Shown one piece after another: positions 28,651-56,550 of a stretch of 64,000 nt of DNA. The notes below the pieces were generated by a model, which was given only the letters and a program-made list of their open reading frames with translations, had not been told where the DNA came from and ran no database searches. Every line of letters starts with the position of its first letter. The stretch's first letter is position 1. The stretch is from assembly GCA_046598715.1 (NCBI GenBank), contig JBKJIE010000093.1, forward strand, positions 16,964 through 80,963, written 5' to 3'. A program made the translations under genes and the position numbers. The DNA is from Acidimicrobiales bacterium (GTDB lineage Bacteria; Actinomycetota; Acidimicrobiia; Acidimicrobiales; VFJN01).

Positions 28651-29409
28651 ATGTCGGAGCAAGCAGGGGGTGCAGGTCGTCGCGTCGCCATCGTGAGCGA
28701 CGCCGCTGGCTATGTCGGCCCGAACCTGAGCCGCGTGCTCGTGGAGCGCGGCCACGACCTCGTCATCGGTGATCCCGCCGACGGACTCGTCGACGAGCTG
28801 ACTGGCATGGGTGCCGCCATCGAGGTCGTCGAGCGGGTGCGCGACCTCGCCAAGGGCGACGCCGCCGAGCGCCTCGTGCAGGCGGCCATGGACCGCTTCG
28901 GGCGCATCGACTCGGCCACCGCGTTCACGGGCCGGATCGTGGTGGGCCGGTTCCTCCGCTCGACGATGGACGACATGCGCGCCGCGCTGGTGGGCTGCGT
29001 AGAGGCGCCCTATGCGTTTCTCCGGGTGGTGGTGCCGGTGATGGTGGAGCAGGGCGAGGGACAGGTGCTGGTGTTCACCAGCGCGGCTGGGGCCCGGCCG
29101 ACGCCCGGCGCGCCGCTGTACTCCTCGGCACGGGCGGGGGCCAACATGCTCGTGCGCAACGTCGCCGCCGAGGTGGCGGGCAAGGGCGTGCAGGTGAACG
29201 CCATCGGCACGAACTTCATGGACTTTCCCGAGTTCCTCAAGGCCAACAACGCCGAAGACCCAGAGGGCCGAGCCCGCGTGGAGGCGGCCGTGCCCATGGG
29301 TCGGCTCGGCACGCTCGCCGAGCTGGCCAGCTTCTCCGCCGCGTTCGTCGACGGCACCAGCCGCTTCGCGACCGGCCAGTTCGTGGCCTTCGCCGGAGGC
29401 TGGGCATGA
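28651..29409 (+). CDS. Halohydrin dehalogenase-like SDR-fold protein (HHDH family candidate)
   Basis: It lacks the TGxxxGxG cofactor loop and has S16-x4-Y21-x-G23 instead. The catalytic pattern is S144-x12-Y157-x3-R161 (TSAAGARPTPGAPLYSSARAG), that is Ser-Tyr-Arg rather than Ser-Tyr-Lys. The C-terminal region resembles HheC from memory (YSSARAGA..., MGRLGT...TGQFVAFAGGW). Confidence 0.75.
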   Translation: MSEQAGGAGRRVAIVSDAAGYVGPNLSRVLVERGHDLVIGDPADGLVDELTGMGAAIEVVERVRDLAKGDAAERLVQAAMDRFGRIDSATAFTGRIVVGRFLRSTMDDMRAALVGCVEAPYAFLRVVVPVMVEQGEGQVLVFTSAAGARPTPGAPLYSSARAGANMLVRNVAAEVAGKGVQVNAIGTNFMDFPEFLKANNAEDPEGRARVEAAVPMGRLGTLAELASFSAAFVDGTSRFATGQFVAFAGGWA

Positions 29410-31664
29410 CCTCGCCGAACGAGCCCTTCGGCGGCCACATCGGCCGCACCTATCACGACTCCACCCCGTGGTGGCCCGATCCGCCCGCGGGACTGGGTGG
29501 TCCGAACGTGGTGATGGTGGTGCTCGACGACACGGGCTTCGGGCACTTCGGGTGCTACGGATCTGAGCTGGCCACGCCGGCCATCGACCGCCTGGCCGCC
29601 GGCGGACTCCGGTACACCGGGTTCCACACCACAGCACTGTGCTCGCCGTCGCGCGCGGCGCTGCTCACAGGCCGCAACCCGCACGCCGTCGGCATGCGGG
29701 GCGTGTCCAACTGGAGCACCGGGTTCCCCCACATGCGGGGCGGGATCAGCCCGCGCGCGGCCACGGTGGCCGAGTTGCTCCGCGCCCACGGGTACGCCAC
29801 CTACGCGGCGGGGAAGTGGCACCTCGCGCCCATGGAGGAGTGCTCGGCTGCTGGCCCGCACACCAACTGGCCGCTGCAGAAGGGCTTCGATCGGTTCTAC
29901 GGCTTCCTCCAAGGCGAGACCGACCAGTTCCACCCCGAGCTCACGAGCGACAACGGCCACATCGATCCGCCGGGCCGTCCTGAGGACGGCTACCACGTGT
30001 CGGAGGACATCGTCGACCGCGCTACCGGGTGGATCGGCGACCTGCAGTCGATCCGTCCCGACCGGCCGTTCTTCCTCTACCTGCCCTTCGGGGCCACGCA
30101 CGCGCCCCATCAGGCACCGGCCGCGTACCTCGCTCGTTGGCGAGGCCGCTTCGACGACGGCTATGACGCCGCCCGAGCGCGCTGGTTCGCGCGTCAGATC
30201 GAGCTCGGCATCGTGCCGCCAGGCACCACGTTGGCCCCGCCAAACCCGGGCGTGCCCGCGTGGACCGATCTCACCGACAACCAGCGCCGGTTCTCCGCTC
30301 GGTTGCAGGAGGCGTTCGCAGCGATGCTCGAGCACACCGATGTGCAGATCGGGCGCCTCGTCGACTTCCTCGAGCGCCGGGCGCTGCTCGACAACACCAT
30401 CGTGATGGTGCTGTCCGACAACGGCGCCTCGCGCGAGGGCGGGCCCTTCGGTGTGATGGACGAGTTCAGCTTCTTCAACGCGGCGTGGGAGGACATCGAC
30501 GAGCTCGTGGCCACCCGCCTCGACGACATCGGGGGGCCCCACTCGCACTCGAACTACCCGTGGGGCTGGGCCCAGGCTGGCAACTCGCCGCTTCGTTGGT
30601 ACAAGCAGAACACCTACGGCGGCGGCGTGCGCGACCCGCTCGTCGTCCACTGGCCCACGGGCATCACCGACGCCGGCGCCATCCGCACGCAGTTCTGCCA
30701 CGCCGTCGACATCACCCCCACCATCCTCGAGCTCACGGGCGCGCCGGTGGCCGATCACCACAACGGCGTGGCGCAGATCCCCATGCACGGGGCATCGATC
30801 ACGGCCACCTTCGACAACCCGGCGGCGTCTGCACCGCGCTCGATCCAGTACTTCGAGCAGATGGGACACCGGGGCCTCTGGGCCGACGGCTGGAAGATCT
30901 CGACCTACCACGAGCAAGGCCAGCCGATCGACGACGACGAGTGGGCGCTCTTCCACCTCGACGAGGACTTCTCGGAGTGCCACGACGTCTCGGCGGAGCA
31001 TCCCGAGAAGCTCCGCGAGCTCATCGAGCTGTGGTGGGTGGAGGCGGGTCAGCACGGCGTGCTGCCCCTCGACGACCGCACGATCGAGCTGTTCGGCGGC
31101 CAAGCGCGCCCCGCCACGGTGCACGCCCGCCGCGACTACGTGTACTTCCCGCCGCTGGCCCACATCCCCGCCGACGCCGCGCCACCGCTGGGGGGCCGGT
31201 CGTGGACGATCACCGCCGAGGTCGACGTGCCCCACGGCGACGGCGAGGGTGTGCTCTACGCCCGGGGCGGACACAACGTGGGCCACACGTTCTTCGTCAA
31301 GGACGGTGCATTGCAGTTCGACTACAACGCGCTCGGCACGCACCACCGAGCCGCGGGCGCGCTGCCGCCGATGTCGGGCCGACATGCGCTCTCCGCACGG
31401 TTCGAACGGGCAGGGAAGGGCGGCACGCTGTCCCTCGCGCTCGACGGCGCAGAGGTGGCGAGCATCGAGATACCCAAGATCGTGCGGATGCTGGGCTCGA
31501 CGGGGCTCGACGTGGGACGCGACGCGCTGTCACCCGTGGTCGACGACTACGACGCGCCCTTCCCGTTCACGGGCACAATCGATCGCATCACCTTCGCCAT
31601 CCGGAGCCGACCCGACGCGGCCGAGATCGAGGCGACCGCCCGCGCGGAGCTCGCCAAGGAGTGA
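29406..31664 (+). CDS. Arylsulfatase-type sulfatase (Cys-type, 752 aa), paralogue of 19458..21734
   Basis: LCSPSRAALLTGR (CxPxR) after VVLDDTGFG, and SDNGAS. ATG 29406 forms an ATGA overlap with the HHDH-like stop. Confidence 0.9.
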   Translation: MTSPNEPFGGHIGRTYHDSTPWWPDPPAGLGGPNVVMVVLDDTGFGHFGCYGSELATPAIDRLAAGGLRYTGFHTTALCSPSRAALLTGRNPHAVGMRGVSNWSTGFPHMRGGISPRAATVAELLRAHGYATYAAGKWHLAPMEECSAAGPHTNWPLQKGFDRFYGFLQGETDQFHPELTSDNGHIDPPGRPEDGYHVSEDIVDRATGWIGDLQSIRPDRPFFLYLPFGATHAPHQAPAAYLARWRGRFDDGYDAARARWFARQIELGIVPPGTTLAPPNPGVPAWTDLTDNQRRFSARLQEAFAAMLEHTDVQIGRLVDFLERRALLDNTIVMVLSDNGASREGGPFGVMDEFSFFNAAWEDIDELVATRLDDIGGPHSHSNYPWGWAQAGNSPLRWYKQNTYGGGVRDPLVVHWPTGITDAGAIRTQFCHAVDITPTILELTGAPVADHHNGVAQIPMHGASITATFDNPAASAPRSIQYFEQMGHRGLWADGWKISTYHEQGQPIDDDEWALFHLDEDFSECHDVSAEHPEKLRELIELWWVEAGQHGVLPLDDRTIELFGGQARPATVHARRDYVYFPPLAHIPADAAPPLGGRSWTITAEVDVPHGDGEGVLYARGGHNVGHTFFVKDGALQFDYNALGTHHRAAGALPPMSGRHALSARFERAGKGGTLSLALDGAEVASIEIPKIVRMLGSTGLDVGRDALSPVVDDYDAPFPFTGTIDRITFAIRSRPDAAEIEATARAELAKE

Positions 31665-31983: not shown

Positions 31984-32796
31984 TCAGGCGAACAGTGCTG
32001 CGCCGGCTCGGATCGCGGTGTACGCGGCCACCGCCACGAGGAGCGCGGCGAACCAGCGGAGGCTGCCCTCAGGGTCGAGGCGGTCGGCGATCTTGCCGCC
32101 GCTGAGCACGCCGGCGATGGCCGCCACCGTGAAGGGGAGGGTGACACCCCAGTCGATGCTCGTGGTGGCCAGGCGGGTGGTGAGGGCGACGGCTGAGTTG
32201 ATGGCGATCACGAGCAGCGACGTGCCGATCGCCTGCGGCATGGGGAGCTTGAGCACGAGGGCCAGCGCGGGGACGATCACGAAGCCGCCGCCGACGCCGA
32301 ACAGGCCAGTGAGGAACCCCACGGCGGTACCCGCGGACAGCACCACGACTGCCGTCCGGACATCGATCGGTCGCCGGGTGGCGACCGCCGTCGTGCCGGA
32401 TCGGTCGAGCTCCCGGGTCTCCCCGACCTTGGTGCACGTCGGGCACGCAGTGAGCATGCGCCACGCCGCGATCACGACGAGGCCGCTGAAGGCCAGGAGG
32501 AGCACATCAGGGTCGAGTCGACGGTTCAGCAGGGATCCGGCGAGGGAACCCCCGATGCCACACAGGCCGAACACCACTCCTTGGGCCACCCGCACCCGTC
32601 CCGCCCGCCAGTGGGCGCCCATCCCGACCAGCGAGGCGGTGCCCACCAGGAAGAGGCTGGTGGCGGTGGCAGCCTTCGGATCCTGACCGGCGGCGTAGAC
32701 GAGCGCCGGCACAGCGAGGATGGAACCGCCGCCGCCGAGGGCGCCGAGCGACAACCCGATCAGGAAGCCGAGTGGAGACGCGAGCAGGGCGCGCAT
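31984..32796 (-). CDS. TauE/SafE family sulfite/anion exporter
   Basis: 270 aa with ~8 predicted hydrophobic segments and repeated GxGGG motifs (LGALGGGGSILAVP, LFGVGGGFVIVP). The start overlaps the upstream stop by 1 nt. Confidence 0.85.
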   Translation of the reverse strand: MRALLASPLGFLIGLSLGALGGGGSILAVPALVYAAGQDPKAATATSLFLVGTASLVGMGAHWRAGRVRVAQGVVFGLCGIGGSLAGSLLNRRLDPDVLLLAFSGLVVIAAWRMLTACPTCTKVGETRELDRSGTTAVATRRPIDVRTAVVVLSAGTAVGFLTGLFGVGGGFVIVPALALVLKLPMPQAIGTSLLVIAINSAVALTTRLATTSIDWGVTLPFTVAAIAGVLSGGKIADRLDPEGSLRWFAALLVAVAAYTAIRAGAALFA

Positions 32797-34205
32797 CAGC
32801 GGGGCTGGGGCCCCGGCTCACCGGTCGGCGCGGTGCCAGGCCGTGTGGCGATCCAGGCGCCGTAGCCACCGATGAGGTCGGCGACGGTGTGGAACCCGTG
32901 CGCGCGCAACGTCGAGGCCGCCACCGACGACCGGTAGCCACCCGCGCAGTAGACGATCGTGGGACGGCCTCGGTCGAGGTCGTCGATGTGGTCGAGCAGC
33001 GATGGCAGGGGCACGTTGCGAGCGCCCGGGATGATGCCCTCGGCGGTCTCGCCCAGGTTGCGGACGTCGACCACCTGCAGGGTCGGATCCTCCGCGAGCC
33101 ACGTGGCGACGTCAGCCGCGGGGAGACGGCTCGCGGTCGCGGCAAGGTCGGGCCGGTCGGCGAGGACGGCTTCGATGGAGGGCACCTCGCCGACGACGTC
33201 GTCGAAGCCGATGCGAGCCAGGCGCACCTTGGCCTCGACGCCGCGGCCCGCCTCACCAAGGAGCACCACCTGCTGGCCCGGGCGCACGACGTCGCCCGCG
33301 TACTCGGCGAACCGGCCGTCGAGGCCCACGTTCACCGAGCCCCGCACGTGGCCGGACGCGAACGACTCCGGCGGACGGGTGTCGAGCAGGACGGCGCCAG
33401 TGCGTCCCAGGTCGAGCGCCTCGTCGATGGTCAGCGCAGCCGGCGGCTCGTGGTCGTCGAGGAGCTCTCGCTCCCGACGGTTGGCGTTGGCTGCGAACGC
33501 GAAGTACAGCGGCGCCACCCCTTGGCCTTCGGTGACCGCCTCGACGAACGCGTCTTCCGACATGGGTGCCAGCGCGTAGTTCGTGGCCCGTTGCTCGCCG
33601 ATCGTGGACGACGCTGCCGTGGACAGGTTCTTGCCGCAGGCGGAGCCGGCACCGTGGGCGGGGAAGACGCGCGTGGGGTCGGGGAGCGTGAGCAGCTGCT
33701 CGTGCAGCGACCGGTGCAGGTCGCGGGCGAGGCTGTCCGCGGTGCGCCCCACCGAGGTGAGCAGGTCGGGTCGGCCGACATCGCCGATGAACAGGGTGTC
33801 GCCGGTGAGCACACCCCAAGGGGCCGCGTCGGGGTGCTCGTAGACGACGATCGAGATGCTCTCGGGCGTGTGGCCGGGGGTGTGACGGATCTCGAGGGTC
33901 ACCTCGCCCAGCGAGAGCCGCTGACCGTGAGCGAGCGGATCGATGGCGAAGTCGGCCTCGGCGGCATCGCCGTAGGAGATCACAGCGCCCGTGGCCGCGG
34001 CGAGCTCGAGATGCCCCGAGAGGAAGTCGGCGTGGAAGTGCGTCTCGATGACCCGCTCGATGGTGAGGCCATGGACCTCGGCGTCGGCGAGGTAGTCGGA
34101 GGTGTCTCGTTGGGGATCCACGACCACGGCGCGGCCGGTCGTCTCGTCGCCGATCACGTAGCTGTAGAGCGACAGGCAACCGAGCTGGTGCTGGTGAAAG
34201 TACAC
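32796..34205 (-). CDS. Persulfide dioxygenase (MBL fold, ETHE1/CstB-like) fused to two rhodanese domains
   Basis: MBL motif THFHADF. The C-terminal rhodanese has the active-site loop YCAGGYRS. Confidence 0.85.
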   Translation of the reverse strand: MYFHQHQLGCLSLYSYVIGDETTGRAVVVDPQRDTSDYLADAEVHGLTIERVIETHFHADFLSGHLELAAATGAVISYGDAAEADFAIDPLAHGQRLSLGEVTLEIRHTPGHTPESISIVVYEHPDAAPWGVLTGDTLFIGDVGRPDLLTSVGRTADSLARDLHRSLHEQLLTLPDPTRVFPAHGAGSACGKNLSTAASSTIGEQRATNYALAPMSEDAFVEAVTEGQGVAPLYFAFAANANRRERELLDDHEPPAALTIDEALDLGRTGAVLLDTRPPESFASGHVRGSVNVGLDGRFAEYAGDVVRPGQQVVLLGEAGRGVEAKVRLARIGFDDVVGEVPSIEAVLADRPDLAATASRLPAADVATWLAEDPTLQVVDVRNLGETAEGIIPGARNVPLPSLLDHIDDLDRGRPTIVYCAGGYRSSVAASTLRAHGFHTVADLIGGYGAWIATRPGTAPTGEPGPQPR

Positions 34206-34233
34206 GATGTTCCTCCGTGTGGTCGTCGGGGGG

Positions 34234-36399
34234 TCAGTGGGAGAAGCTGATGTGCGGAAGGCGGCGATCGAGCCAGGCGGGCACGTACCACGCTCGTTCG
34301 CCGAGCATGCCCAAGAGGGACGGCACCAGCATCATGCGGATGACCGTGGCGTCGAGCAGCACGGCGAGGGCCAGGGTGACCCCCAGCTCGGTCGGTGGGA
34401 TCGGACCCGTCACGCCGAACGCGATGAAGACCACGATCATGATCAGCGCCGCGTTCGTGATGGGGCGCCCGGTGCGGGCGATGCCCTCGCGCACGGCCAG
34501 CCGAGCGTCGCCCGTTGCGTCCCGGCGCTCCTTGATGGCTGCAAGCAGGAACAGCTGGTAGTCCATCGACAGGCCGAACAGCAGCGCGAAGAAGAACAGC
34601 GGCGCCCATGCATCCACGAAGCCCTGGTGCTCGATGCCGAGAAGCGACGCCCCGTAGCCGTGCTGGAAGACCAGTGTGGCGAAACCGAAGCTGGCGGCAA
34701 CACCGACCAGGTTCAGGAGGATCGACGAGACGGCGATCACCAGGCTGCGGAACACCACGAGCAGCAGCACGAACGCGACCAGCATGATCGCTCCAACGGC
34801 CAGCGGTGCCGCGCCCGTGAGCGCCGCGGTGAGGTCGTGGTTCTGGGCCCCAGGTCCACCGACGGTGGCGTCGGGGACGACGGGCTCCAGGTCGTGGCGG
34901 AGGCGGCCGACCAGCGATGAGGTGGCCTGGTCGTCCACGGCAGTGGCGGGGATGACCCGCACGACGGTGCGTCCGGTGGCGGACGGTTCGCTCACGACCC
35001 GAGCGTCAACGACCCCTGGCTCGGCGGCTGCCATCTCGACGACCGTGGTGGAACGCCCGGCAGGCGCGGTGATGAACAGGGGTGCAGCGGCCCCAGGGCC
35101 GAAGGCATCGACGACCGCTTCGTAGCCGTCGCGGCTCTGCTGGCCCCGGTCGACCACGCGCGCGCCGGGCATGCCCAATCGCATCCCGAACGCGGGGCTG
35201 GCCAGGAGCAGCAGGATGCCGAGGCCAGCGGCCAGCGTGACCCCCGGACGCCGCATGGCCGCAGCGGTCCACCGGGCCCACCGCCCCTCCGCGGCACGGT
35301 CCAGATCTTCGTGGCCACGGGCCACGAGGACCCGATCGCCGAGGGCGACGAGGATCGCGGGCAGGAGGGTGAGCGATGCGGCCGCGGTGGCCACCACCGA
35401 GAGGATCATCCCAAGGGCCATCGAGCGGAAGACCATCACGGGCACGAAGAAGACAGCCGCCAGCGAGAGCACGACCGTGAGGGCAGACAGGAACACCGCC
35501 TTGCCGGCGGTGGCGAGGGTGCCGGCCACCGCGTCGAGGGCATCCTTGCCGTCCTCGCGCTCCTCTCGGTAGCGGGAGACGATGAAGAGGCTGTAGTCGA
35601 TGCCGACGGCGAGGCCGATCATCATCGAGAAGTTCATGGACCACACCGACAACGGCGTGAGCCCCGTACCCAGGTGGAGCGCCGCGAACCCGACCGCGAT
35701 GCCGGCGATGGCGAGGATCAGGGGGATCCCGGCGGCGATGGCCGACCCGAAGGCGACGAAGAGGAGGATGACGGTTGGCAGCCCGGAGAGCAGCTCGGCG
35801 CGGTGGAGCGCCTGCTCGTTCTCGGTGTTGAAGTCGTGCCACACAGCCCATTCGCCCGTGGCGTTCGCAGTCGCGCCCTTGGGTAGGTCGATGCCCGCGA
35901 TGGTGTCCATCACCGCACCCGCGGCCTCTGGCCGGTCGGTGTCGTGCGGGGCGTCGAGCCCGACCGGCACCAAGGCGGTGCGGCCATCGGGGGAGATGAG
36001 GCCGGCGTCGGGGGGTGCTTTGAGCGGATCGACCACCGTGGTGGTGCGGCGGCTCCCCTGAAGGCCAGCGACGAGCGCGTGGAGGCCCGCAGGGTCCCGG
36101 ACGATCGGAGCAGCCTGGTGGTAGGCCACGATTGCTGCCTCCGCGCCGAGCTGGGGGAAGTCGCGCCGGATCTCGTCGCGCACCTGCTGCGCGGAGGAGC
36201 CCTGGGCCTCCCATCCGGCTCCTGAGAGGGCTGACGTGACGGTGATGGCGAGCGGTGCGGCCACCAGCACGATGAGCACCCACATGGTGAGCACCCGTCG
36301 CGGTCGGCGGCCGGCGGCCCGGCCGAGGCGGGCGAGGATGCCATCACCCTGCGGGTGATCCGATGATGACTGGGTGCGGGGATCCTCGATGAGGGTCAC
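34234..36399 (-). CDS. MMPL family RND-type membrane transporter
   Basis: 721 aa with two blocks of ~6 predicted TM helices separated by soluble loops, and typical MMPL sequence (ILARLGRAAGRRPRRVL..., MNFSMMIGLAVGIDYSLFIVSRYREE). GTG start at 36399. Confidence 0.85.
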   Translation of the reverse strand: MTLIEDPRTQSSSDHPQGDGILARLGRAAGRRPRRVLTMWVLIVLVAAPLAITVTSALSGAGWEAQGSSAQQVRDEIRRDFPQLGAEAAIVAYHQAAPIVRDPAGLHALVAGLQGSRRTTTVVDPLKAPPDAGLISPDGRTALVPVGLDAPHDTDRPEAAGAVMDTIAGIDLPKGATANATGEWAVWHDFNTENEQALHRAELLSGLPTVILLFVAFGSAIAAGIPLILAIAGIAVGFAALHLGTGLTPLSVWSMNFSMMIGLAVGIDYSLFIVSRYREEREDGKDALDAVAGTLATAGKAVFLSALTVVLSLAAVFFVPVMVFRSMALGMILSVVATAAASLTLLPAILVALGDRVLVARGHEDLDRAAEGRWARWTAAAMRRPGVTLAAGLGILLLLASPAFGMRLGMPGARVVDRGQQSRDGYEAVVDAFGPGAAAPLFITAPAGRSTTVVEMAAAEPGVVDARVVSEPSATGRTVVRVIPATAVDDQATSSLVGRLRHDLEPVVPDATVGGPGAQNHDLTAALTGAAPLAVGAIMLVAFVLLLVVFRSLVIAVSSILLNLVGVAASFGFATLVFQHGYGASLLGIEHQGFVDAWAPLFFFALLFGLSMDYQLFLLAAIKERRDATGDARLAVREGIARTGRPITNAALIMIVVFIAFGVTGPIPPTELGVTLALAVLLDATVIRMMLVPSLLGMLGERAWYVPAWLDRRLPHISFSH

Positions 36400-36484
36400 A
36401 GAGTCGCTCGTTTCAGGTCGGGGCGCGGATGAGACTGGGGTCGCGGTGACACGGACGCGGCAGTTGCCGGTTGTGCGGGCTGCG

Positions 36485-36754
36485 TCAGGCCAGCTTGGTG
36501 AACATCTTCTGGACGTCGGCCAACTCGTAGCCCTCGGCCGCCGAGCGCTCGGGGTCCTCGAGGCACCAGGTCAGCCCGGCGGCGACGAGCACGAACCCCG
36601 TCTGCTCCAGTGCCTTGTTGGCGGCCGAGAGCTGGGTGACGATGTCTCGACAGTCGCGGTGGTCCGCGAGCATCTGCTGGATCCCGCGCACCTGGCCCTC
36701 CACTCGGCGCAGGCGGCGAATCAGGTCGTCGACGGTGTCCTCAGGGAGCTCCAT
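36485..36754 (-). CDS. CsoR/RcnR-family repressor, CstR-like (persulfide-sensor type)
   Basis: 89-aa DUF156 fold (RLRRVEGQVRGIQQML). Cys35 and Cys64 are present, with Gly60 where Cu-sensing CsoR has His (x-C-x-C fingerprint). Confidence 0.85.
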   Translation of the reverse strand: MELPEDTVDDLIRRLRRVEGQVRGIQQMLADHRDCRDIVTQLSAANKALEQTGFVLVAAGLTWCLEDPERSAAEGYELADVQKMFTKLA

Positions 36755-36765
36755 GGCTCCACGCT

Positions 36766-36785
36766 ATATACCCCTGGGGGTATAT
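36766..36785. promoter_or_regulatory. CsoR/CstR-type operator 1: ATATACCCC-TG-GGGGTATAT (perfect 9-bp inverted repeat)
   Basis: Read directly, 12 nt upstream of the cstR-like start in the divergent intergenic region. The G/C tract flanked by AT-rich arms is the known CsoR-family operator style. Confidence 0.6.
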
Positions 36786-36826
36786 GCAACACCCGAAGGG
36801 CCCCTTGGCTCGGGACCTTTCGGATC

Positions 36827-36840
36827 TACCCCCCGGGGTA
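36827..36840. promoter_or_regulatory. CsoR/CstR-type operator 2: TACCCC-CC-GGGGTA
   Basis: Read directly, about 20 nt upstream of the SQR start. It has the same core as operator 1. Confidence 0.5.
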
Positions 36841-36861
36841 TGGATGCCCTTGGCTAGAGGT

Positions 36862-38109
36862 ATGACACATCGAGTTGTGATCCTCGGCGGCGGAACCGGC
36901 GGAACCCTCACTGCGAACCGGCTGCGCCGTCGATTCAGCACCGACGCCGTCGCCATCACCGTGGTGGACCAGGACGATCGCCACGTGTACCAGCCTGGGC
37001 TGCTCTTCGTTCCCTTCGGCCTGGCCCACTCTGAGGACATCGTTCGGCCGCGGCACCGTCAGCTGCACGATGACATCGAGTTCCGCCAGACGGCGATCGA
37101 TCGGGTGGAGATCGTGGACAACGAGGTCCACCTCGCCGATGGCGCCGTCGTGCCCTATGACGTGCTCGTCATCGCCACGGGCGCGGTCCTCGTGCCCGAG
37201 GAGACTGAGGGCATGACGGGGCCGGGGTGGATGGAGAAGGTCTTCACCTTCTACACACCCGAGGGCGCTGGTGCCCTCGAAGCCGCGCTGGCCACCTTCG
37301 ACGCGGGGCGGGTCGTCGTCAACGTCGTCGACATGCCGATCAAGTGCCCCGTCGCGCCGCTCGAGTTCTGCTTCCTGGCCGACTGGTACTTCCACGAACG
37401 CGGCATCCGCGACCGCGTGCAGCTCACCTACGTGACGCCCCTCGACGGCGCGTTCACCAAGCCAGTCGCGTCGAAGCAGCTCGGGGCGATGCTGGCCGAC
37501 AAAGGCATCGAGCTCATCACCGAGTTCAACACCGGCGAGGTCGACGGGGCCGGGGGTCGGCTCGTGTCCTACGACGAGCGCGAGGTGGCCTTCGATCTCG
37601 CCGTGGTGATCCCGCTGCACGGCGGCGCCCCCTACGTGGGTCGGTCGGCCGGTCTCGGTGACGACCTCAACTTCGTTCCCACCGACGAACACACGCTGCA
37701 GTCGAAGGTGGCCCCCAACGTGTTCGTGATCGGTGACGCCGCCAACGTGCCTGCCTCCAAGGCTGGCTCGGTGACGCACTTCGAAGGCGAGACGCTGGTG
37801 GAGAACGTCAGTCGGTTCCTCGAGGGCGAACCGCTCGAGGCCGGCTTCGACGGCCACGCGAACTGCTTCATCGAGACCGGCTTCCACAAGGCGCTGCTCA
37901 TCGACTTCAACTACGACACCGAGCCCCTGCCCGGCCACTACCCGACCGGCGTGGGACTCCCACTGCTGAAGGAGTCGCGCCTGAACCACCTCGGGAAGCT
38001 GCTCTTTCAGCCCTTCTACTGGCACGGGCTCCTGCCCGGCCGTGAGATCCCCGGCATCGGGTCGGCCATGCCGACCGCCGGCAAGCAACCCATCCAGAGG
38101 GAGGACTGA
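36862..38109 (+). CDS. sqr: Sulfide:quinone oxidoreductase-like FAD-dependent oxidoreductase
   Basis: ILGGGTGG FAD motif, conserved Cys contexts PIKCPVAPLEF and GHANCFIETG, and GDAANVP. The start is ATG 36862, or 36844. Confidence 0.8.
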   Translation: MTHRVVILGGGTGGTLTANRLRRRFSTDAVAITVVDQDDRHVYQPGLLFVPFGLAHSEDIVRPRHRQLHDDIEFRQTAIDRVEIVDNEVHLADGAVVPYDVLVIATGAVLVPEETEGMTGPGWMEKVFTFYTPEGAGALEAALATFDAGRVVVNVVDMPIKCPVAPLEFCFLADWYFHERGIRDRVQLTYVTPLDGAFTKPVASKQLGAMLADKGIELITEFNTGEVDGAGGRLVSYDEREVAFDLAVVIPLHGGAPYVGRSAGLGDDLNFVPTDEHTLQSKVAPNVFVIGDAANVPASKAGSVTHFEGETLVENVSRFLEGEPLEAGFDGHANCFIETGFHKALLIDFNYDTEPLPGHYPTGVGLPLLKESRLNHLGKLLFQPFYWHGLLPGREIPGIGSAMPTAGKQPIQRED

Positions 38110-38111
38110 CG

Positions 38112-38531
38112 ATGTCGACAACGACGATCGCCGCCACCGAGGTCGAGCTGAACGACGAGGGCTTCTTCGTCCATCCCGAGCAGTGGACCGAGGACATGGC
38201 GCCTGAGCTGGCCCGTCGAGATGGCATCGACGAGCTCACCGAGCCCCACTGGACCGTGCTGCGGTTCATGCGGGCCGAGTACTTCGACAAGGGCACCGGG
38301 CCGACGGTCCGCGTGCTCGGCAAGACCTCCGGCGTGTCGATCAAGGAGCTCTACCAGCTCTTCCCCAACGGCCCGGCCAAGGTCGCCGCCCGCATCGCCG
38401 GCATCCCCAAGCCTCGCGGCTGGCATCTGAACAGGAGCGAACCATGGCTGAACGCATCACACCCGACCCGATCACGAAGGTCTCGATCGTCATCTCGAAG
38501 GGGTCCCTCGACGGGGTCTACCCAGGGCTGA
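38112..38531 (+). CDS. DsrC/TusE-family sulfur-relay protein, with the C-terminus apparently disrupted by a +1 frame change
   Basis: Family-typical LTEPHWTVLRFMRAEYF...LFPNGPAKVAARIAGIPKPRG. It then reads W-H-L-N plus a 34-aa Arg/Ser-rich tail overlapping the next gene. Removing one G at 38422/38423 gives the canonical ...PKPRGCI-stop ending at 38430. Confidence 0.7.
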   Translation: MSTTTIAATEVELNDEGFFVHPEQWTEDMAPELARRDGIDELTEPHWTVLRFMRAEYFDKGTGPTVRVLGKTSGVSIKELYQLFPNGPAKVAARIAGIPKPRGWHLNRSEPWLNASHPTRSRRSRSSSRRGPSTGSTQG

Positions 38532-38716
38532 TCATGGCCAACGGCGCCCGCGCCGAGGGCATCGAGGCCAACCTGTTCTTCACCTTCTTCGGCCTCGACG
38601 CCATCCACAAGGCGCGCCACGAGCACATCAAGATGGCCACCGTGGGCAACCCGGGTCTGCACGTGCCCACGATGCTCGGCGGCATCCCCGGCGTGTCGTC
38701 GATGATGACGCAGTAA
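38444..38716 (+). CDS. DsrE/DsrF-like (DsrE_2) protein, N-terminal half
   Basis: AGGAGC RBS then ATG 38444. The product KVSIVISKGSLDGVYPGLIMANGARAEGIEANLFFTFFGLDAI matches the first half of ~160-aa DsrE_2 proteins. It ends at TAA 38714-38716. Confidence 0.65.
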   Translation: MAERITPDPITKVSIVISKGSLDGVYPGLIMANGARAEGIEANLFFTFFGLDAIHKARHEHIKMATVGNPGLHVPTMLGGIPGVSSMMTQ

Positions 38717-38717
38717 C

Positions 38718-38927
38718 ATGAACCACAAGATGGAGAAGCTCGACATCCCCTCCATCCCGGAGTTCGTCGAGATGATCGCGGACACCGGCGCCGGCATGTA
38801 CGCGTGCAAGGCGTCGGTCGATCTGTTCGGCCTCGAGAAGAACGACTTCATCGAGCAGGTGCAGGACATCATCACCGTGGGCGAGTTCTACGAGAAGGCC
38901 GCCGGGGGTCAGATCATCTTCACGTAG
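38718..38927 (+). CDS. DsrE/DsrF-like (DsrE_2) protein, C-terminal half (carries the conserved YACKAS cysteine)
   Basis: It starts 1 nt after the TAA of the previous ORF, in the +1 frame. The product IPSIPEFVEMIADTGAGMYACKASVDLFGLEK...GGQIIFT matches the second half of the same family. Confidence 0.65.
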   Translation: MNHKMEKLDIPSIPEFVEMIADTGAGMYACKASVDLFGLEKNDFIEQVQDIITVGEFYEKAAGGQIIFT

Positions 38928-39785: not shown

Positions 39786-39976
39786 CGCCGTCGTCCTTGT
39801 GGCGACCGGCGCCCGGTTCAGCTGATCGCGCAGCAGCAGCAAGACCGCATCATCCGGACAAACCAAGTCATGGCCGGTCGGCGTCAGCGGTGCTGCAGTA
39901 CCGTGCGGGTGTCCGAGCCACGTGACGCGATCGTCTGCCCCCGTGCGACCGATCGATCGACAACCGGAGGTCTCCC

Positions 39977-40543
39977 ATGCGCCATACCCTGCGCCCCTGG
40001 CTGCCGCGAGCCGCGCTCGTATCAGCGTCGCTGTTCCTTGGCGCGTGCCTGCCCATCACCCTCCCCGGTACCAGCACCACGCCTCCCTGTCCGGAGGGCA
40101 CCTTCCACATCACCGACCAGGTACTGAGCGGGCTGGTGCCCACCTCCCTGGGCAACGTGCAGCTCACCCTCGTGCCAGGAGGGAACCTGGCGCTCTCGGT
40201 CACGGCGAGCTCGTGGAGCCTCGCCGGGTCGCAGAGCCTCACCGTGAGCGGCATCACGCCATGGGGGCCCGTGTCGGGCACGGCCTCGGTCACCGTCAAC
40301 GCGAGCGGGTCGTGGACAAAGACGTCGTCCACGCAGCTGAACTTCACCGTCGGGAGCGTGTCCGGTTCGGGCACGTTCACCGGCACTGTGAGCGGGGCCT
40401 CGGTCTCGCGGACCGCTTCGCTCGCGGACCTCGGCCTCGACCGCGTCTACGGGCTGTCAGGCTCGGCGACGTACGGGTGCGGATCCGCGCCGAGCCTCAC
40501 GCTCACCTTCACCTCAGCGCGCCTCGAGCTCCATCGAGACTGA
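39977..40543 (+). CDS. Putative lipoprotein of unknown function
   Basis: GGAGG RBS. Signal peptide with lipobox LFLGAC. Ser/Thr/Gly-rich beta-type repeats. Confidence 0.6.
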   Translation: MRHTLRPWLPRAALVSASLFLGACLPITLPGTSTTPPCPEGTFHITDQVLSGLVPTSLGNVQLTLVPGGNLALSVTASSWSLAGSQSLTVSGITPWGPVSGTASVTVNASGSWTKTSSTQLNFTVGSVSGSGTFTGTVSGASVSRTASLADLGLDRVYGLSGSATYGCGSAPSLTLTFTSARLELHRD

Positions 40544-40568
40544 CGGTCGCGGCGCCGGGTTGCGCCGT

Positions 40569-42290
40569 CTACGGCAGGATCGGCCCGAAGGGGGCGACCG
40601 GCCCCCGCGGCACGGTCGGGACCTCGGCGACCGACGGCGCGAGGATCCGGTAAGCAAACAGCCCGCTGGCCGGCGAGAGCGGTGATGCCCCGAGGAATCG
40701 GTCGGCGGCGCTTGCACCAAAGGCCTTGAACTCCAGATCGCTGGTCCGCGTGCCCGTGCCGAGGTAGATGGTGTCTCCCACGACGGTGGGCGACGACGAC
40801 GACGCGCCGGCGACTGGCATCACCGAGAGCAGTGCGCCCGTGTCGGCGTGGATGGCGAGCAGGTCGGCCGAGAAGGTCGACGGCACGAGCACGACGCCGT
40901 TGGAATACGTCGGTGCCCCGTAGCTCTGTCGTGACAAGGGAGATCGCCAGAGGATGTCGCCGGTGGCGGCATCGATGGCGGTGAGTGACAGCATGCGGAA
41001 CGGGTCCTCGGCGAGCGTGGTGTCGGCCCAGCTCTGGGGGTGACCCTCGTCGAGCGGCTCGTAGATCGGGGTGGAGAGCGCCGTTGTGGCGAACACGGCG
41101 GGCTTGCCGCTCACCAGGCCAACCGCAGGGGTGCCGATGATGCCGCCCACGGCGAAGCCGTCGGTCACATGCCCTGACTCGCCGACATGGGCGGTCCACC
41201 TCGGTGCGCCGCTTGTCTCCTCGAACGCATAGTACCTGCCGTCCTTGCTGCCGAACCCGACGACGCCGTCGGGCAGAAGGTTGGGGGAGGCGCCGAAGTC
41301 GTCGTCCCAGTCCTCGTTGGCGCGGGGCGTGTCGTGGCGCCACACGAGCGCGCCCGTCTGGAGGTTCACGGCCCACGTGTCCTCACCGACCTCGATGCCA
41401 TCGGATCCGCACGACCCGGTTCCGAAGAACACGAGCTTGCGGTCGACGTCGACAGCGGGGGAGCCCCACACGCTGGCGCAACCGAAGCCGGTGCCCGAGC
41501 CCTCGGTCAGCAGGTTCGCGCCGTGATAGGTGGCGCCGTCGGCATCGCCGACTCCGTCGCCTTCGGGATCGAACTTCCAGTCAGGACTGAGGGTCCAGCG
41601 GTCGCCGACGTGGCGCAAGGTCGACGAGACGACCCCGGTACGGCCGACGTTGCGATCGTTGTGGACGTCGAGACCCACGACGATCTGCAGGGACCCATCG
41701 TCGTGGTGGATGACGGCGGGGGAGGACTCGATCTCCACCTGACCACTGTCGGTCCCGGCGCACCGGGCGACGCCGATGGCGCGGGGGTCGAGGCACAGCG
41801 TGGTGAGCTCCTCGCCAGCGGCGTTCGTCGTGTCGGCGGCGAGGACGTAGATCGTGGCGCCGCCGCCGAAGATCACGACCTTGGTTTCATCAACGGTGGC
41901 GACCGCTGCGCTCGAGACGATTCGGCCGAATGCCACGGAGTTCGTGTCGCCGATCTGGAACGTCCAGGCCGGCGCGGCCACGCCGACTTGGTCGACCGGG
42001 ATGGCGTGGAACGCCCCCGTCCAGTCACCGGCGTAGGCCACTCCGTCGACGATGGTCGGGGACGCGGTGAGCGAGTCGGTCGTGGGCAGGCCCCAGCGGG
42101 GGGTGATCGACGGCGCCGTCAGCGGTGAGAGCGTGGTGCACCCGGTGTTGGCCGCGAAGCTGTGCCCGAGGTCGTGGCCGTACATCGGCCAGTCGCATTC
42201 GAGCTCACCCTCTGCGTGAGCAGTCGGGAGCAGCGAGCCGGCGCCCAGAAGGGCGAGAGCAGCGGCAACGGTCACGATGGCTCGGCGCAC
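40569..42290 (-). CDS. Secreted PQQ-like beta-propeller repeat protein
   Basis: Signal peptide (AAALALLGAGSLLPTAHA), then WPMYGHDLGHSFA and repeated propeller blade-like segments. Confidence 0.75.
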   Translation of the reverse strand: MRRAIVTVAAALALLGAGSLLPTAHAEGELECDWPMYGHDLGHSFAANTGCTTLSPLTAPSITPRWGLPTTDSLTASPTIVDGVAYAGDWTGAFHAIPVDQVGVAAPAWTFQIGDTNSVAFGRIVSSAAVATVDETKVVIFGGGATIYVLAADTTNAAGEELTTLCLDPRAIGVARCAGTDSGQVEIESSPAVIHHDDGSLQIVVGLDVHNDRNVGRTGVVSSTLRHVGDRWTLSPDWKFDPEGDGVGDADGATYHGANLLTEGSGTGFGCASVWGSPAVDVDRKLVFFGTGSCGSDGIEVGEDTWAVNLQTGALVWRHDTPRANEDWDDDFGASPNLLPDGVVGFGSKDGRYYAFEETSGAPRWTAHVGESGHVTDGFAVGGIIGTPAVGLVSGKPAVFATTALSTPIYEPLDEGHPQSWADTTLAEDPFRMLSLTAIDAATGDILWRSPLSRQSYGAPTYSNGVVLVPSTFSADLLAIHADTGALLSVMPVAGASSSSPTVVGDTIYLGTGTRTSDLEFKAFGASAADRFLGASPLSPASGLFAYRILAPSVAEVPTVPRGPVAPFGPILP

Positions 42291-42386
42291 GACATACCCC
42301 AGTCAGATCGGCAGGAAGAAACGTGATGTCTGCCCTGGCAGGGACGCCCGCCTCGGGCGCCCCTGCCAGGAGCACTCAACGTGCAC

Positions 42387-43334
42387 CTACGGGTTCAGCT
42401 CGCCCTCGCAGCCGCCGTGACGAGCGTCGATCGTCTCGCCGGTGGGCTGGCTCACGATGACGCCGCAGGTGCCGGCGTAGGCGCCGGGGATCGGGTACGG
42501 GGTGCCTCCGAGGGGCGAGCCCTCAGGGTTCGGGTCCTCGTAGACCGACACGCCGGGCTGGTTGTAGACGGTGCCGACCTTGTTGTTCCAGTCGTAGATG
42601 TTCTCCTTGTCGCCGTCGGTCGTGGGGTCATCGCACTCGTCGCGACTCGTGTTCGGATCGGTGTTGTTCTGGTCTGGTCCCGAGCAGGTCGCCGGGTCCC
42701 ACGTGACGCCGCTGTAGTCGGCCGAGTCGCGATGGTTGTTCTCATCCCCGCCCTGGTACGCCACGGTCTGCGTGGTCGTCGCCGCGAAGCAGATGCCGTC
42801 AGCGCAGGCCCCGGTGGAAAACGACACGAACGGGAAGGGATGAGTGAACAGGTAGGCCATGTCGCCGCCTTGCACTGCCGTCATCCAGGCCTCGATCGAG
42901 TCGGGATCGAAGGCGACCAGCTGGATGCCGCCGCCATCGCTCGGTCCGTGACCCATGCCCGACGCACCGTCGTGCTCGCCGCCGCTCAGGTTGTCGTCGG
43001 CGCCGAAGTAGATCCGCCCGCCCTGGGTGGGATCGACGCCCTCACCCAAGTCGCCGTCGGTCTGGTAGTGGTGGAGGAAGGTGCCGTCCGCCGTGTGGAG
43101 CGTGCCGGCCCGGACGAGCTCATGGTCGCCGTTCTCCACGAAGATGGTCATGTTCTGACACCGCTCGGTGTTGTCGTGCGGCACGTCCTCTTGCTCGGTG
43201 TCGTTGTGCCACTCGTCGCAGCGTTGGTCTGCGGGGTTGTACACCCCGTCGCTCTGGGCGAGTGCGACACCCGCGGTTCCGACCATGGTGACGCCGGCCA
43301 GGATGGCCATGGCGAGCTTGCGGCTCCGTTGCAT
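42387..43334 (-). CDS. Secreted acidic Cys/His/Asp-rich protein of unknown function
   Basis: ATG at 43334-43332 with an AAGGGGA RBS. Signal peptide MQRSRKLAMAILAGVTMVGTAGVALA. 10 Cys. I recognise no domain. Confidence 0.6.
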   Translation of the reverse strand: MQRSRKLAMAILAGVTMVGTAGVALAQSDGVYNPADQRCDEWHNDTEQEDVPHDNTERCQNMTIFVENGDHELVRAGTLHTADGTFLHHYQTDGDLGEGVDPTQGGRIYFGADDNLSGGEHDGASGMGHGPSDGGGIQLVAFDPDSIEAWMTAVQGGDMAYLFTHPFPFVSFSTGACADGICFAATTTQTVAYQGGDENNHRDSADYSGVTWDPATCSGPDQNNTDPNTSRDECDDPTTDGDKENIYDWNNKVGTVYNQPGVSVYEDPNPEGSPLGGTPYPIPGAYAGTCGVIVSQPTGETIDARHGGCEGELNP

Positions 43335-43360
43335 GAGCGGGGTTCCCCTTCGAAGGTCTT

Positions 43361-43376
43361 CTGACGCGTGCGTCAG
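43361..43376. promoter_or_regulatory. Palindrome CTGACGC-GT-GCGTCAG in the leader/promoter region of the secreted-protein gene
   Basis: A 7-bp perfect inverted repeat read directly, 27 nt upstream of the 43334 start on the minus strand. Confidence 0.25.
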
Positions 43377-43555
43377 GTTTGTGTTGCCAAGGGGTTCGCC
43401 TCGGCAATGACCGATTCCTCCTTCTTGAACCGCAATCCACCCATTTGTGCATCCAGGCGTGCTCACGATGCTGTCGGCGCGGGTCCAGGCACGCGGAATG
43501 CCGGTCCGAGGGAGCCGCGGTGGCTTAGCCTGGCGCCGACACGGGGGTAGCGGAC

Positions 43556-44560
43556 GTGGCCGATGAGGGGGACTGCACCGCGGTGCGGCTCAGAGGGGTG
43601 ACCAAGCGCTTCGATGACGTGCTCGCCGTCGACGACATCCACCTCGAGGTCGGTGCCGGGGAGTTCTTCGCCATGCTCGGGCCGTCGGGCTCCGGCAAGA
43701 CCACCACGCTCCGGCTGATCGCCGGGTTCGAGCTCCCCACGGCCGGCACGATCGAGCTGGGCGGCCGGGACATCAGCAACGACCCGCCGTTCGACCGCGA
43801 CGTGAACACGGTGTTCCAGGACTACGCGCTCTTCCCGCACATGCACGTGGCCGGCAACGTCGAGTACGGCCTGAAGGTCAAGAAGGTGCCCAGGCCGGAG
43901 CGGGCCCGCCGGGTCGAGGAGGCACTGGCGACGGTGCGCCTCGAGGGCTACGGAGGGCGCAAGCCGTCGCAGCTGTCGGGTGGCCAGCGTCAGCGCGTCG
44001 CGCTGGCGCGCGCGCTGGTCAACCGCCCGAGCGTGCTGCTCCTCGACGAGCCGCTCGGGGCCCTCGACCGCAAGCTCAGGGAGGAGATGCAGGTCGAGCT
44101 CAAGCAGATCCAGCAACGGGTGGGCATCACCTTCATCTTCGTCACCCACGACCAGGGCGAGGCGCTGTCGATGAGCGATCGCGTGGCGGTGTTCCACGAC
44201 GGTCGCATCGAGCAGGTGGGCACGCCTCGGGAGATCTATGAGCAGCCAGCCAACGAGTTCGTGGCCGGGTTCGTGGGCACCGCCAACCTCCACAAGGATG
44301 GGGAGCGGCTCGTGAGCGTGCGACCAGAGCGAATCCGGATCGGCGCTCCCTCTGGTGACGACCTCAGCGCCACAGGCGTGATCGAGGACGTCCAGTACCT
44401 CGGGGCCATGACCCGCTACCGGGTGCGCACGACGGATGCGGCCGGTCTCATCGTCGAGGTTCCGAACACCGACACCTCGCCGCGGCTCACGGCAGGTGAC
44501 GCCGTCGAGCTCTCATGGCGGCGCGATGACCGCCAGAGCGTGGGATCGGCCCAGGAGTAG
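43556..44560 (+). CDS. ABC transporter ATP-binding protein (PotA/CysA-like importer ATPase)
   Basis: Walker A GPSGSGKTT, signature LSGGQRQRVALARAL, Walker B LLLDEP, and a C-terminal TOBE-like domain. Confidence 0.9.
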   Translation: MADEGDCTAVRLRGVTKRFDDVLAVDDIHLEVGAGEFFAMLGPSGSGKTTTLRLIAGFELPTAGTIELGGRDISNDPPFDRDVNTVFQDYALFPHMHVAGNVEYGLKVKKVPRPERARRVEEALATVRLEGYGGRKPSQLSGGQRQRVALARALVNRPSVLLLDEPLGALDRKLREEMQVELKQIQQRVGITFIFVTHDQGEALSMSDRVAVFHDGRIEQVGTPREIYEQPANEFVAGFVGTANLHKDGERLVSVRPERIRIGAPSGDDLSATGVIEDVQYLGAMTRYRVRTTDAAGLIVEVPNTDTSPRLTAGDAVELSWRRDDRQSVGSAQE

Positions 44561-44593
44561 GGCAAGACAACGAACACAACAACAGGGGGAACC

Positions 44594-47441: not shown

Positions 47442-47474
47442 GTTGCGCTGATCGGCCCCGGTAGCGTCCCCGCC

Positions 47475-47903
47475 ATGACGGAGGAGCTGTATGACCTCTC
47501 GGCTCGCTACGCCGCCGGTGCCGATCGTCGGGACGCGGCGCTGTTCGTGAGCGCCTTCCTCCCGGAGGGTCGATTGCGACGCTACGAGCCGGGCGAGGCG
47601 TCGGAGCCGGCCAGCGATCGATCGGGCCACGAGGCGCTCGCGGCGGTGCCGGGTCTGCTGGCGCGGTACGACCGAACGTTCCACCACCTCGGCCAGGCCC
47701 GCTATGCGGTCGATGGCGACGACGCAACCGGCGAGGTCTACTGCCTCGCCCACCACGTCACGGCGGGCGATCCCGCCGAGGTCCACGTGATACACATCCG
47801 CTACGCCGACCGCTACCGCCGCGTCGAGGGCCGGTGGGGGATCGCCGACCGGCGAGTGCTGGTCGACTGGTCGGAGCGCCGCCCGTTGAGCGATCCCACG
47901 TGA
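47475..47903 (+). CDS. SnoaL/NTF2-like family protein
   Basis: 142 aa with the SnoaL_4-type pattern (LSARYAAGADRRDAALF...HHLGQ...RYADRYRRVEGRWGIADR). Confidence 0.65.
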   Translation: MTEELYDLSARYAAGADRRDAALFVSAFLPEGRLRRYEPGEASEPASDRSGHEALAAVPGLLARYDRTFHHLGQARYAVDGDDATGEVYCLAHHVTAGDPAEVHVIHIRYADRYRRVEGRWGIADRRVLVDWSERRPLSDPT

Positions 47904-56543: not shown

Positions 56544-56550
56544 CGCGTCT

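Follow-up and report, generated by a model that had tools for sequence, protein, structure and literature searches.

A predicted CstR-type sulfide-stress regulon with frameshifted sulfur-carrier genes in an Acidimicrobiales bacterium

We analyzed a 64-kb stretch of DNA (the window; GC content about 70%) from the Acidimicrobiales bacterium assembly GCA_046598715.1, contig JBKJIE010000093.1, in which positions 31984 to 38927 hold genes for sulfide and persulfide detoxification around a gene for a CsoR-family repressor. We read this locus as a persulfide-responsive, CstR-type regulon in which one 107-bp control region serves two divergent operons and both sulfur-carrier genes have been inactivated, and we give this predicted reading a probability of about 0.8. 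The kind of system is already known: the locus is cst-like in its working and is not an orthologous copy of the Staphylococcus aureus operon. A sequence-only reading made before this analysis had described a divergent, cst-like sulfide-stress regulon around a CstR-type repressor, and this description is upheld by two predicted operators, a sulfide:quinone oxidoreductase (SQR), a CstB-type fusion protein, TauE and the lack of cop genes in the window. It had also called the regulon complete, which conflicts with two single-base insertions, one removing the acceptor cysteine of the TusE-like protein and one splitting the DsrE2-like gene.

Features of the locus, with protein lengths in amino acids (aa), profile matches and positions in the window.
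31984..32796, minus strand: tauE/safE-family anion exporter, 270 aa, the last minus-strand gene; PF01925, 163 bits, profile positions 4-236 of 237
32796..34205, minus strand: CstB-like persulfide dioxygenase (PDO) with two rhodanese domains, 469 aa; PF00753 and two PF00581 stretches
34234..36399, minus strand: MMPL-family (RND superfamily) transporter, 721 aa; PF03176, 262 bits, in two stretches
36485..36754, minus strand: CstR-like CsoR-family repressor, 89 aa, first gene of the minus-strand operon; PF02583, 78.7 bits
36766..36785: predicted operator 1, ATATACCCC-TG-GGGGTATAT, a perfect 9+2+9 palindrome 12 nt from the cstR start codon
36824..36845: predicted operator 2, ATCTACCCCCCGGGGTATGGAT, with core TACCCCCCGGGGTA at 36827-36840, a weaker palindrome 22 nt upstream of the sqr ATG
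36862..38109, plus strand: type III SQR, 415 aa; NF049943
38112..38531, plus strand: TusE/DsrC-like sulfur-carrier gene, frameshifted, 139 aa; PF04358, 106.5 bits, residues 6-103
38444..38716, plus strand: DsrE2-like N-terminal fragment, 90 aa; PF13686, profile positions 4-68 of 156
38718..38927, plus strand: DsrE2-like C-terminal fragment in the +1 frame, 69 aa; PF13686, profile positions 89-153 of 156

The proteins of the window are closest to those of Acidimicrobiia metagenome-assembled genomes (MAGs) from the Ilumatobacteraceae, Microthrixaceae and Acidimicrobiaceae, the top SQR match having 84% amino-acid identity. Three public data sets (Logan SRR31159417, JGI 3300015163 and ENA ERZ28573534) contain DNA 99.8-99.95% identical to the window, and a 92% identical relative, JGI contig Ga0506494_0019933 (L165), has the same gene order. 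The close relatives identified come without exception from MAGs or metagenome contigs. For comparison we used 80 genome loci fetched via SQR and 80 metagenome loci fetched via MMPL. About 57 window genes were scanned with Pfam, and the integrity of their reading frames was assessed by codon-usage Viterbi segmentation together with Pfam coverage. The profile searches proposed earlier (PF02583, PF00753 with PF00581, PF04358, PF13686 and PF01925) all returned matches, PF13686 in two open reading frames, and the Pfam matches bear out the minus-strand gene series as first read: CsoR family, MMPL, MBL-fold protein with two rhodaneses, TauE/SafE.

The repressor, predicted operators and oxidative enzymes

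The repressor lies well above the PF02583 (CsoR/DUF156) cut-off of 22.8 bits and covers profile positions 3-75 of 78. It has cysteines at positions 35 and 64 and, as the sequence-only reading had noticed, a glycine (Gly60) at the position of the Cu-CsoR histidine, giving the pattern x-C-G-C. In an alignment of 52 clade members C35, G60 and C64 are invariant, the Cu-ligand histidine is never present, and the repressor shows neither the N-terminal His nor the Pro W residue. Clusters having the x-C-x-C form of the W-X-Y-Z signature, with two conserved cysteines and no Y-position histidine, have been assigned to persulfide sensing (PMC8643695), and we expect the repressor to belong to the known group of actinomycete CstR-like proteins, cluster 3 of the sequence similarity network (SSN) of Fakhoury et al. 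2021 (PMC8643695). With the CsoR of Streptomyces locus L060, where the gene order is the ScCsoR-like pdo-tauE-csoR-rhod, it shares only 41% identity.

Both predicted operators lie in the divergent intergenic region of 107 bp between cstR and sqr (36755-36861). The pattern TACCN6GGTA occurs twice in the 64 kb, both times within this region, against an expectation of 0.03 sites, and two matches were obtained in 0 of 100 shuffles. Both sites fit ATACCn6GGTAT, the motif bound by ScCsoR of Streptomyces coelicolor as determined by electrophoretic mobility shift assay and MEME (PMC7533328), and they resemble the cst operator core of Streptococcus mitis, ATATACCCTTATGGGGTATAT (PMC8643695). L165 shares operator 1 letter for letter, and its version of operator 2 is degenerate, reading TACGCCCCGGGGCA. 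At 36818-36820, between the operators, the window reads TTT, against TT in the Logan contig, a JGI contig (L082) and L165. This additional T shifts the operator spacing by 1 bp and interrupts an inverted repeat that would be perfect without it, CCGAAGG (36793-36799)...CCTTCGG. Either true variation or faulty assembly could account for it. A GC-rich palindrome, CCGAAGGGCCCCTTGG, is found midway between the operators at 36793-36808, where L165 is only partly alike (CCGATGGCCCCATTGG).

The same operator recurs in relatives. Of 79 related loci, 18 have it in the 250 nt preceding sqr (0.96 sites per kb compared with a background of 0.042), and it is also found upstream of cstB, csoR and mmpL. The triad of SQR, TusE and DsrE2 genes is complete at 76 of the 80 genome loci, the other 4 being cut by contig ends, and a CsoR-family gene lies within 7 kb of the triad at 18 of the 80. 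The position of this gene varies: upstream of sqr, between the triad and cstB-tauE, or beside a CoA-disulfide-reductase-like protein. At loci L025, L026, L029, L031 and L032 the neighbor of the csoR homologue is, by sequence, a CoA-disulfide reductase with a C-terminal rhodanese, an enzyme type also encoded in the Enterococcus faecalis CstR operon (PMC8643695). Because the repressor falls in an x-C-G-C clade and the operator recurs at sqr, cstB, mmpL and csoR in relatives, the locus is best described as a CstR-type persulfide regulon.

If the repressor were instead a metal (Cu, Ni, Co) or aldehyde sensor of the CsoR/RcnR/FrmR family, the sulfur genes would be adjacent to it by chance. Such a sensor would fit with its top NCBIfam match, the Cu sensor RicR, with its top PDB match, a Cu-CsoR, and with an operator type that is common to Cu-CsoRs, the motif in PMC7533328 having been built from CsoR and RicR sites. 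The RicR score, however, is 57 bits, far under the cut-off of 175, and glycine replaces the Y-position histidine of C-H-C Cu(I) binding throughout the clade alignment. No cop, rcn or frm genes (including copA, copZ, rcnA and frmA) were found among the approximately 57 genes scanned in the window, and the genes that do surround the repressor, those for SQR, CstB and TauE, belong to sulfide and persulfide detoxification and not to Cu or Ni efflux. The operator moreover recurs across many genomes before sqr, cstB and the CoA-disulfide-reductase-rhodanese-like gene, and it is to persulfide sensing that the x-C-x-C clusters have been assigned. We consider a metal or aldehyde sensor very improbable.

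Several further points weigh against the persulfide regulon. Sequence similarity alone fails to separate the repressor from copper sensors, as it is about equally near the Cu-CsoR 4M1P and the CstR structures 7MQ1 and 7MQ3, with 4M1P slightly higher than 7MQ1; the class assignment therefore rests on signature residues, operator and genomic context. Neither a sigma-70-like promoter nor an intrinsic terminator was found in the control region and at the operon ends, which is unsurprising at 70% GC, and the operon boundaries are accordingly inferred. The strict operator motif stands before only 23% of related sqr operons, so that CstR control of the triad would be lineage-specific. Many orthologous csoR-mmpL pairs are on contigs that show no sulfur genes, and the primary signal of the clade could thus be another thiol-reactive compound, a point taken up below with the transporter.

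Among the enzymes, the start of the SQR was set at ATG 36862, to which residue 1 of relatives aligns, and not at the open reading frame start 36784. Its score against the NCBIfam model NF049943 is 569 bits (cut-off 525; profile positions 2-406 of 406), and it has the FAD motif ILGGGTGG at residue 7 and redox cysteines C162 (IKCPVAP) and C335 (HANCFIE). Aligned to human SQOR over residues 3-393 (E 4e-38), C162 and C335 fall on the catalytic pair, and both are invariant in 80 of 80 SQR relatives. Structures of NDH-2, the other flavoprotein that the sequence-only reading had considered, match weakly and only over the N-terminal Rossmann segment. Judged by its matches and cysteines, the flavoprotein is a type III SQR and not NDH-2. 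A selenoprotein SQR was considered and rejected: there is no in-frame TGA, and cysteine occupies both catalytic positions in the window and in all 80 relatives. The full name of NF049943 is 'type III sulfide quinone reductase, selenoprotein subtype', and automated naming would mislabel the window SQR.

The minus-strand fusion protein starts at a GTG codon with GGAGG 6 nt ahead. Its layout is that of CstB, an MBL-fold PDO followed by a non-catalytic and a catalytic rhodanese, with both the PDO cysteine and the rhodanese cysteine: the metal motif THFHADF is at residue 55, Cys190 is in GAGSACGK, and the catalytic Cys420 is in the active loop YCAGGYRS, which had been recognized earlier and maps to residues 419-426. 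It aligned to 3TP9 over residues 11-452 (E 4.5e-88) and to S. aureus 3R2U over residues 1-448 of 469 (E 1.2e-60), with both cysteines aligned in each case. From this domain order and these residues we identify it as a CstB-type (type III) PDO. The cstB stop and the tauE start share one base (CGCTGATGCGC; TGATG), which is the 1-nt overlap first seen at this last minus-strand junction.

By analogy with ScCsoR (PMC7533328), the CstRs of Firmicutes (PMC8643695) and studies of sulfur transfer and oxidation (PMC3397948; PMC9918477; PMC10205796), we infer the following inducer chemistry, repression and flow of sulfur. When reactive sulfur is low, reduced tetramers of the x-C-G-C repressor would occupy both pseudo-palindromic operators and silence the minus-strand operon (cstR-mmpL-cstB-tauE) as well as the plus-strand one (sqr-tusE-dsrE2). 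Sulfane sulfur derived from H2S would modify Cys35 and Cys64, causing the repressor to leave the DNA and both operons to be expressed. At the membrane, the type III SQR would pass electrons from H2S to the quinone pool and generate an enzyme-bound persulfide; the CstB-like fusion would convert persulfide to sulfite and thiosulfate, and TauE would export the anion. In the ancestral relay, still encoded in all relatives, DsrE2-like and single-cysteine TusE-like carriers would take the sulfane sulfur of SQR. In this genome, with both carriers inactivated, SQR may deliver its sulfur without an intermediary, to CstB or some small acceptor, or there may no longer be a relay at all.

Single-base insertions in the two sulfur-carrier genes

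The TusE-like protein exceeds the cut-offs of both PF04358 (24.9 bits) and TIGR03342 (88.3 bits against 53.5). An extra G at 38422/38423 turns GGC TGC ATC TGA into GGC TGG CAT CTG A, so that the frame reads ...PKPRGWHLNRS...; because of this base the penultimate acceptor cysteine is missing, and 36 foreign residues are added. The ancestral stop would fall at 38428-38430, giving a protein of 105 aa. A family search returned 6123 relatives; among the 120 best listed, 116 have exactly this length, and the best, 96% identical, is intact. The ending (A/G)GIPKPxGC(I/V)* is found in 76 of 76 relatives with a readable gene end. One NCBI protein from an 803-bp contig (P0002) is a 163-aa TusE/DsrC-like sequence in which about 58 internal residues are tandemly duplicated (ALTERHWLVVRFMRERF...KIGGIP twice) and which still ends PKPRGCI.

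As DsrC proper this protein does not qualify, since alanine is present about 10 residues before the C-terminal cysteine, and neither the protein nor its relatives have any other cysteine. By its sequence the window carrier is a TusE-type single-cysteine protein by descent and not DsrC proper; its ancestor belonged to the family, and the product as now encoded is, on the same grounds, predicted not to function as a sulfur relay protein.

The DsrE2-like gene is broken in a similar way. An extra A at 38715/38716 makes a TAA stop (38714-38716) from an ancestral TAC tyrosine codon, and reading resumes at ATG 38718. In relatives the two halves are joined by one in-frame codon, mostly TAC or ATG. The cysteine of the YACKAS motif, kept in 72 of 73 relatives, is in the second fragment. 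The fragments score 57.8 and 26.7 bits against the DsrE2 equivalog NF047629, which even summed is far under its cut-off of 210 bits, and 'DsrE2-like' therefore denotes family resemblance only. The sequence-only reading had taken 38444-38927 as one gene and had overlooked both this break and the one in the TusE-like gene; it had the order of a DsrC/TusE-like and a DsrE_2-like protein right, as PF04358 and PF13686 follow one another on the plus strand, but neither is an intact open reading frame. Programmed frameshifting, or a functional split DsrE2 encoded by the series TAA, one base, ATG, was considered and set aside, as the arrangement is found in no relative.

We localized the insertions against L165, whose genes are intact (105 aa for the TusE-like and 155 aa for the DsrE2-like protein). 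They are the only coding insertions or deletions (indels) not divisible by three in 7.8 kb of alignment; without them the window would read GGCTGCATCTGA at 38418-38430 and CAGTACATG at 38711-38720. Both are absent from every relative examined. Both are present in Logan contig SRR31159417_147548, which is 99.95% identical to the window over 5938 bp with 3 single-nucleotide polymorphisms (SNPs) and no gaps, and whose gene calls give the same 139-aa TusE-like product and a separate 69-aa DsrE2-like gene. Look-ups of exact proteins (the SDR neighbor and the 69-aa DsrE2-like fragment) returned this contig as the only other assembly spanning the lesions, and a gap-tolerant DNA pattern across the lesion in the TusE/DsrC-like gene had 0 matches in JGI metagenome contigs.

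Were the frameshifts sequencing or assembly errors, the genome would have intact tusE-like and dsrE2-like genes and a complete regulon. Counting toward this, both lesions are of the +1 type and each doubles what would otherwise be a lone base (G becoming GG, A becoming AA), and the third extra base, at 36818-36820, is private to the window, three other assemblies being without it. Apart from the insertions, both carrier genes are as conserved as sqr (79-88% compared with 84% amino-acid identity to genome locus L001) and so show no sign of decay. Several MAG loci (L007, L014, L049 and L073) have broken tblastn matches in these same genes, most likely from assembly errors. On the other side, the Logan contig shares both insertions while differing from the window at 3 SNPs, and the two assemblies are not copies of one another because a second contig from the Logan sample lacks the extra intergenic base of the window. 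The approximately 57 other window genes have full-length Pfam matches and none is split by a frameshift, and in the 7.8 kb aligned to L165 no other coding indel disturbs a frame. Two random errors in a single adjacent, functionally linked 0.8-kb gene pair are unlikely, with about 0.02 estimated for the second given the first. We conclude that both carrier genes have probably undergone a real and recent inactivation, and that errors are an unlikely explanation which nonetheless keeps appreciable weight.

In the four MAG loci the breaks affect sqr, dsrC, dsrE2, cstB or tauE, with at least 4 in L049 alone, and single-base indels in MAGs need confirmation at the level of the reads.

The plus-strand carriers had also been proposed to act in place of CstA. 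CstA combines homologues of DsrE, rhodanese and TusA in one fusion protein (PMC9918477), and transfer of sulfur from DsrEFH to DsrC is established (PMC3397948), so by analogy a DsrE-type plus a TusE-type carrier is a reasonable substitute for it; this genome, with both genes broken, does not appear to use them.

The MMPL transporter and the rest of the window

The MMPL protein had been left as a bystander in the sequence-only reading, a position at odds with its orthologues: of the 73 loci that could be evaluated, 66 have the operator no more than 300 nt ahead of mmpL or of csoR-mmpL, a density of 4.9 sites per kb compared with 0.045. The 7 loci without it mostly have misplaced start estimates or an operator before an upstream csoR-cstB pair. 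The csoR gene is directly upstream of mmpL in the same direction at 22 loci or more, and cstB directly downstream at 10 or more. Among the visible neighbors of the MMPL genes are cstB, at 20 loci, and tauE, at 14; further recurrent ones are small proteins tentatively read by eye as AhpD-like CxxC, DUF2892 and DUF302. The transporter is thus a core, conserved member of the regulon and the gene most consistently tied to the operator.

The protein has no cysteine. Across 81 aligned sequences 281 of its 721 residues are at least 97% conserved, including the Asp-Tyr pairs D268-Y269 and D613-Y614. The nearest solved structure is MmpL3 (E 1e-47), whose proton-relay pairs we take these to resemble. 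The transporter probably exports a product of sulfide oxidation or a persulfidated or hydrophobic sulfur compound. The searchable literature yielded no report that connects MMPL to CsoR, CstR, sulfide or polysulfide. A more specific proposal, which we put forward as speculative and, taken as a whole, rather unlikely, is that MMPL is a dedicated persulfide-induced exporter, carrying either membrane-dissolved zero-valent sulfur or polysulfane from SQR or a persulfidated low-molecular-weight thiol, and that the regulon of the Acidimicrobiia has csoR-operator-mmpL as its ancient core.

The main task of the clade could instead be to control an MMPL exporter under some other thiol-reactive stress (an electrophile, a quinone or an organosulfur toxin), the sulfide genes having been recruited later in some lineages, that of the window included. 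In favor of this, the cargo of MMPL and RND pumps is usually a hydrophobic or amphiphilic organic compound, the csoR-mmpL or operator-mmpL pair is the most conserved module, and on many contigs neither cstB nor sqr stands beside csoR-mmpL. These contigs are mostly short, however, which makes absent neighbors weak evidence, and the neighbors that are visible are related to sulfur or thiols (cstB, tauE and the small proteins listed above). The characterized actinomycete homologue, furthermore, responds to sulfane sulfur (PMC7533328). We judge such a late recruitment improbable and retain the persulfide-responsive regulon.

Outside the locus, about 7.7 kb of the window (39787-47477) is missing from three close relatives (L165, L166 and L167), in which an SDR gene (ending at about 39786 in the window) is followed directly by a SnoaL-like gene (starting at about 47478 in the window). 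On this segment are four genes for an ABC transporter (an ATPase with a TOBE domain, a solute-binding protein and two permeases), one for a PQQ-like beta-propeller protein and two for hypothetical proteins. Two paralogous sulfatases of about 750 aa (PF00884 and SGSH_C; about 65% mutual nucleotide identity) are encoded at 19461-21734 on the minus strand and 29406-31664 on the plus strand. The second is convergent with tauE across a 320-nt gap, a notable position beside a sulfite/sulfide module; as there is no operator in front of either gene, both are probably outside the regulon. Genes of the sigma-factor partner-switching type are found at 48886-50557 and 56236-59157:
49272-49598: STAS protein
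49709-50557: sigma-70-family factor
56236-56523: second STAS protein
56553-58797: GAF-SpoIIE phosphatase
58798-59157: HATPase anti-sigma-like protein

A TetR-family remnant of 105 aa at 55033-55350 on the plus strand keeps only the end of the HTH (positions 28-46 of the 47 in the TetR_N profile) and, of the 108 positions in the C-terminal domain, the first 44. It is situated between a 130-aa open reading frame of no known type and a convergent gene for a siderophore-interacting protein, and is probably a truncated pseudogene, the sole other damaged gene seen in the window.

Relation to known systems

The regulon is closest to the ScCsoR circuit of S. coelicolor, with a type III SQR-TusE-DsrE2 operon and an MMPL gene added. 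That circuit is made up of ScCsoR (SCO0620), Scpdo (SCO0618)-tauE (SCO0619) and rhod (SCO0621) (Lu et al. 2020, PMC7533328). Like the window repressor, ScCsoR has two cysteines 29 residues apart (C37 and C66, compared with C35 and C64 in the window); the circuit also shares the ATACCn6GGTAT operators, including one at its own promoter for autoregulation, and has a PDO-rhodanese fusion and TauE among its targets. It has no SQR, as its authors stressed, and no MMPL, TusE or DsrE2, whereas in the window a type III SQR operon diverges from cstR and mmpL is inserted between cstR and cstB.

The S. aureus cst operon has CstR and cstA-cstB-sqr, with tauE divergent. It shares with the window the x-C-x-C persulfide sensor, the three-domain CstB, SQR, TauE and a divergent layout around operators. 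Its SQR is of type II and that of the window of type III, and its CstA is one fused carrier protein where the window has separate DsrE2-like and TusE-like genes, both broken. The S. aureus operon has no MMPL, and the window has no CstA-like fusion.

The layout of the plus-strand operon has a counterpart in Methylacidiphilum fumariolicum SolV, where MFUM_v2_0219-0221 encode a type III SQR, a TusA-homologous carrier and a putative DsrE2 (Schmitz et al. 2023, PMC10205796) and are approximately 1.7-fold up in H2S-adapted cells (PMC10205796). The two operons share the three-gene arrangement of a type III SQR with two small putative sulfur carriers. They differ in that Methylacidiphilum belongs to another phylum, no CsoR-type control of its operon has been described, and its middle gene is annotated as TusA-like, compared with the PF04358 TusE/DsrC-like gene of the window. 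The CstR operons of E. faecalis and S. mitis (rhdA-coaP-rhdB; SSN cluster 10, PMC8643695) share a CstR-type repressor and operator with the window. Their CoA-persulfide-reductase-like gene is absent from the window, which has an oxidative SQR/PDO route.

CstR-type persulfide sensing is well studied in Firmicutes, while in actinomycetes it is known from one Streptomyces circuit without SQR. The locus described here would extend it to a fuller regulon in the Acidimicrobiia, an abundant soil and freshwater class, with the repressor-operator logic set over a type III SQR and two carriers, CstB-TauE and MMPL. The paired loss of carriers beside an intact SQR is a natural experiment that bears on whether the triad needs its carriers, and it is one that automated annotation would pass over by calling the pathway complete unless frame integrity was checked. 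The operator before the MMPL subfamily in 66 of 73 loci points to a role for the transporter in reactive-sulfur homeostasis. If the tentative export proposal is true, it would add a new class of MMPL substrate and a missing export step to heterotrophic sulfide detoxification, and the natural loss of both tusE and dsrE2 would demonstrate that a lineage able to export can do without the cytoplasmic relay.

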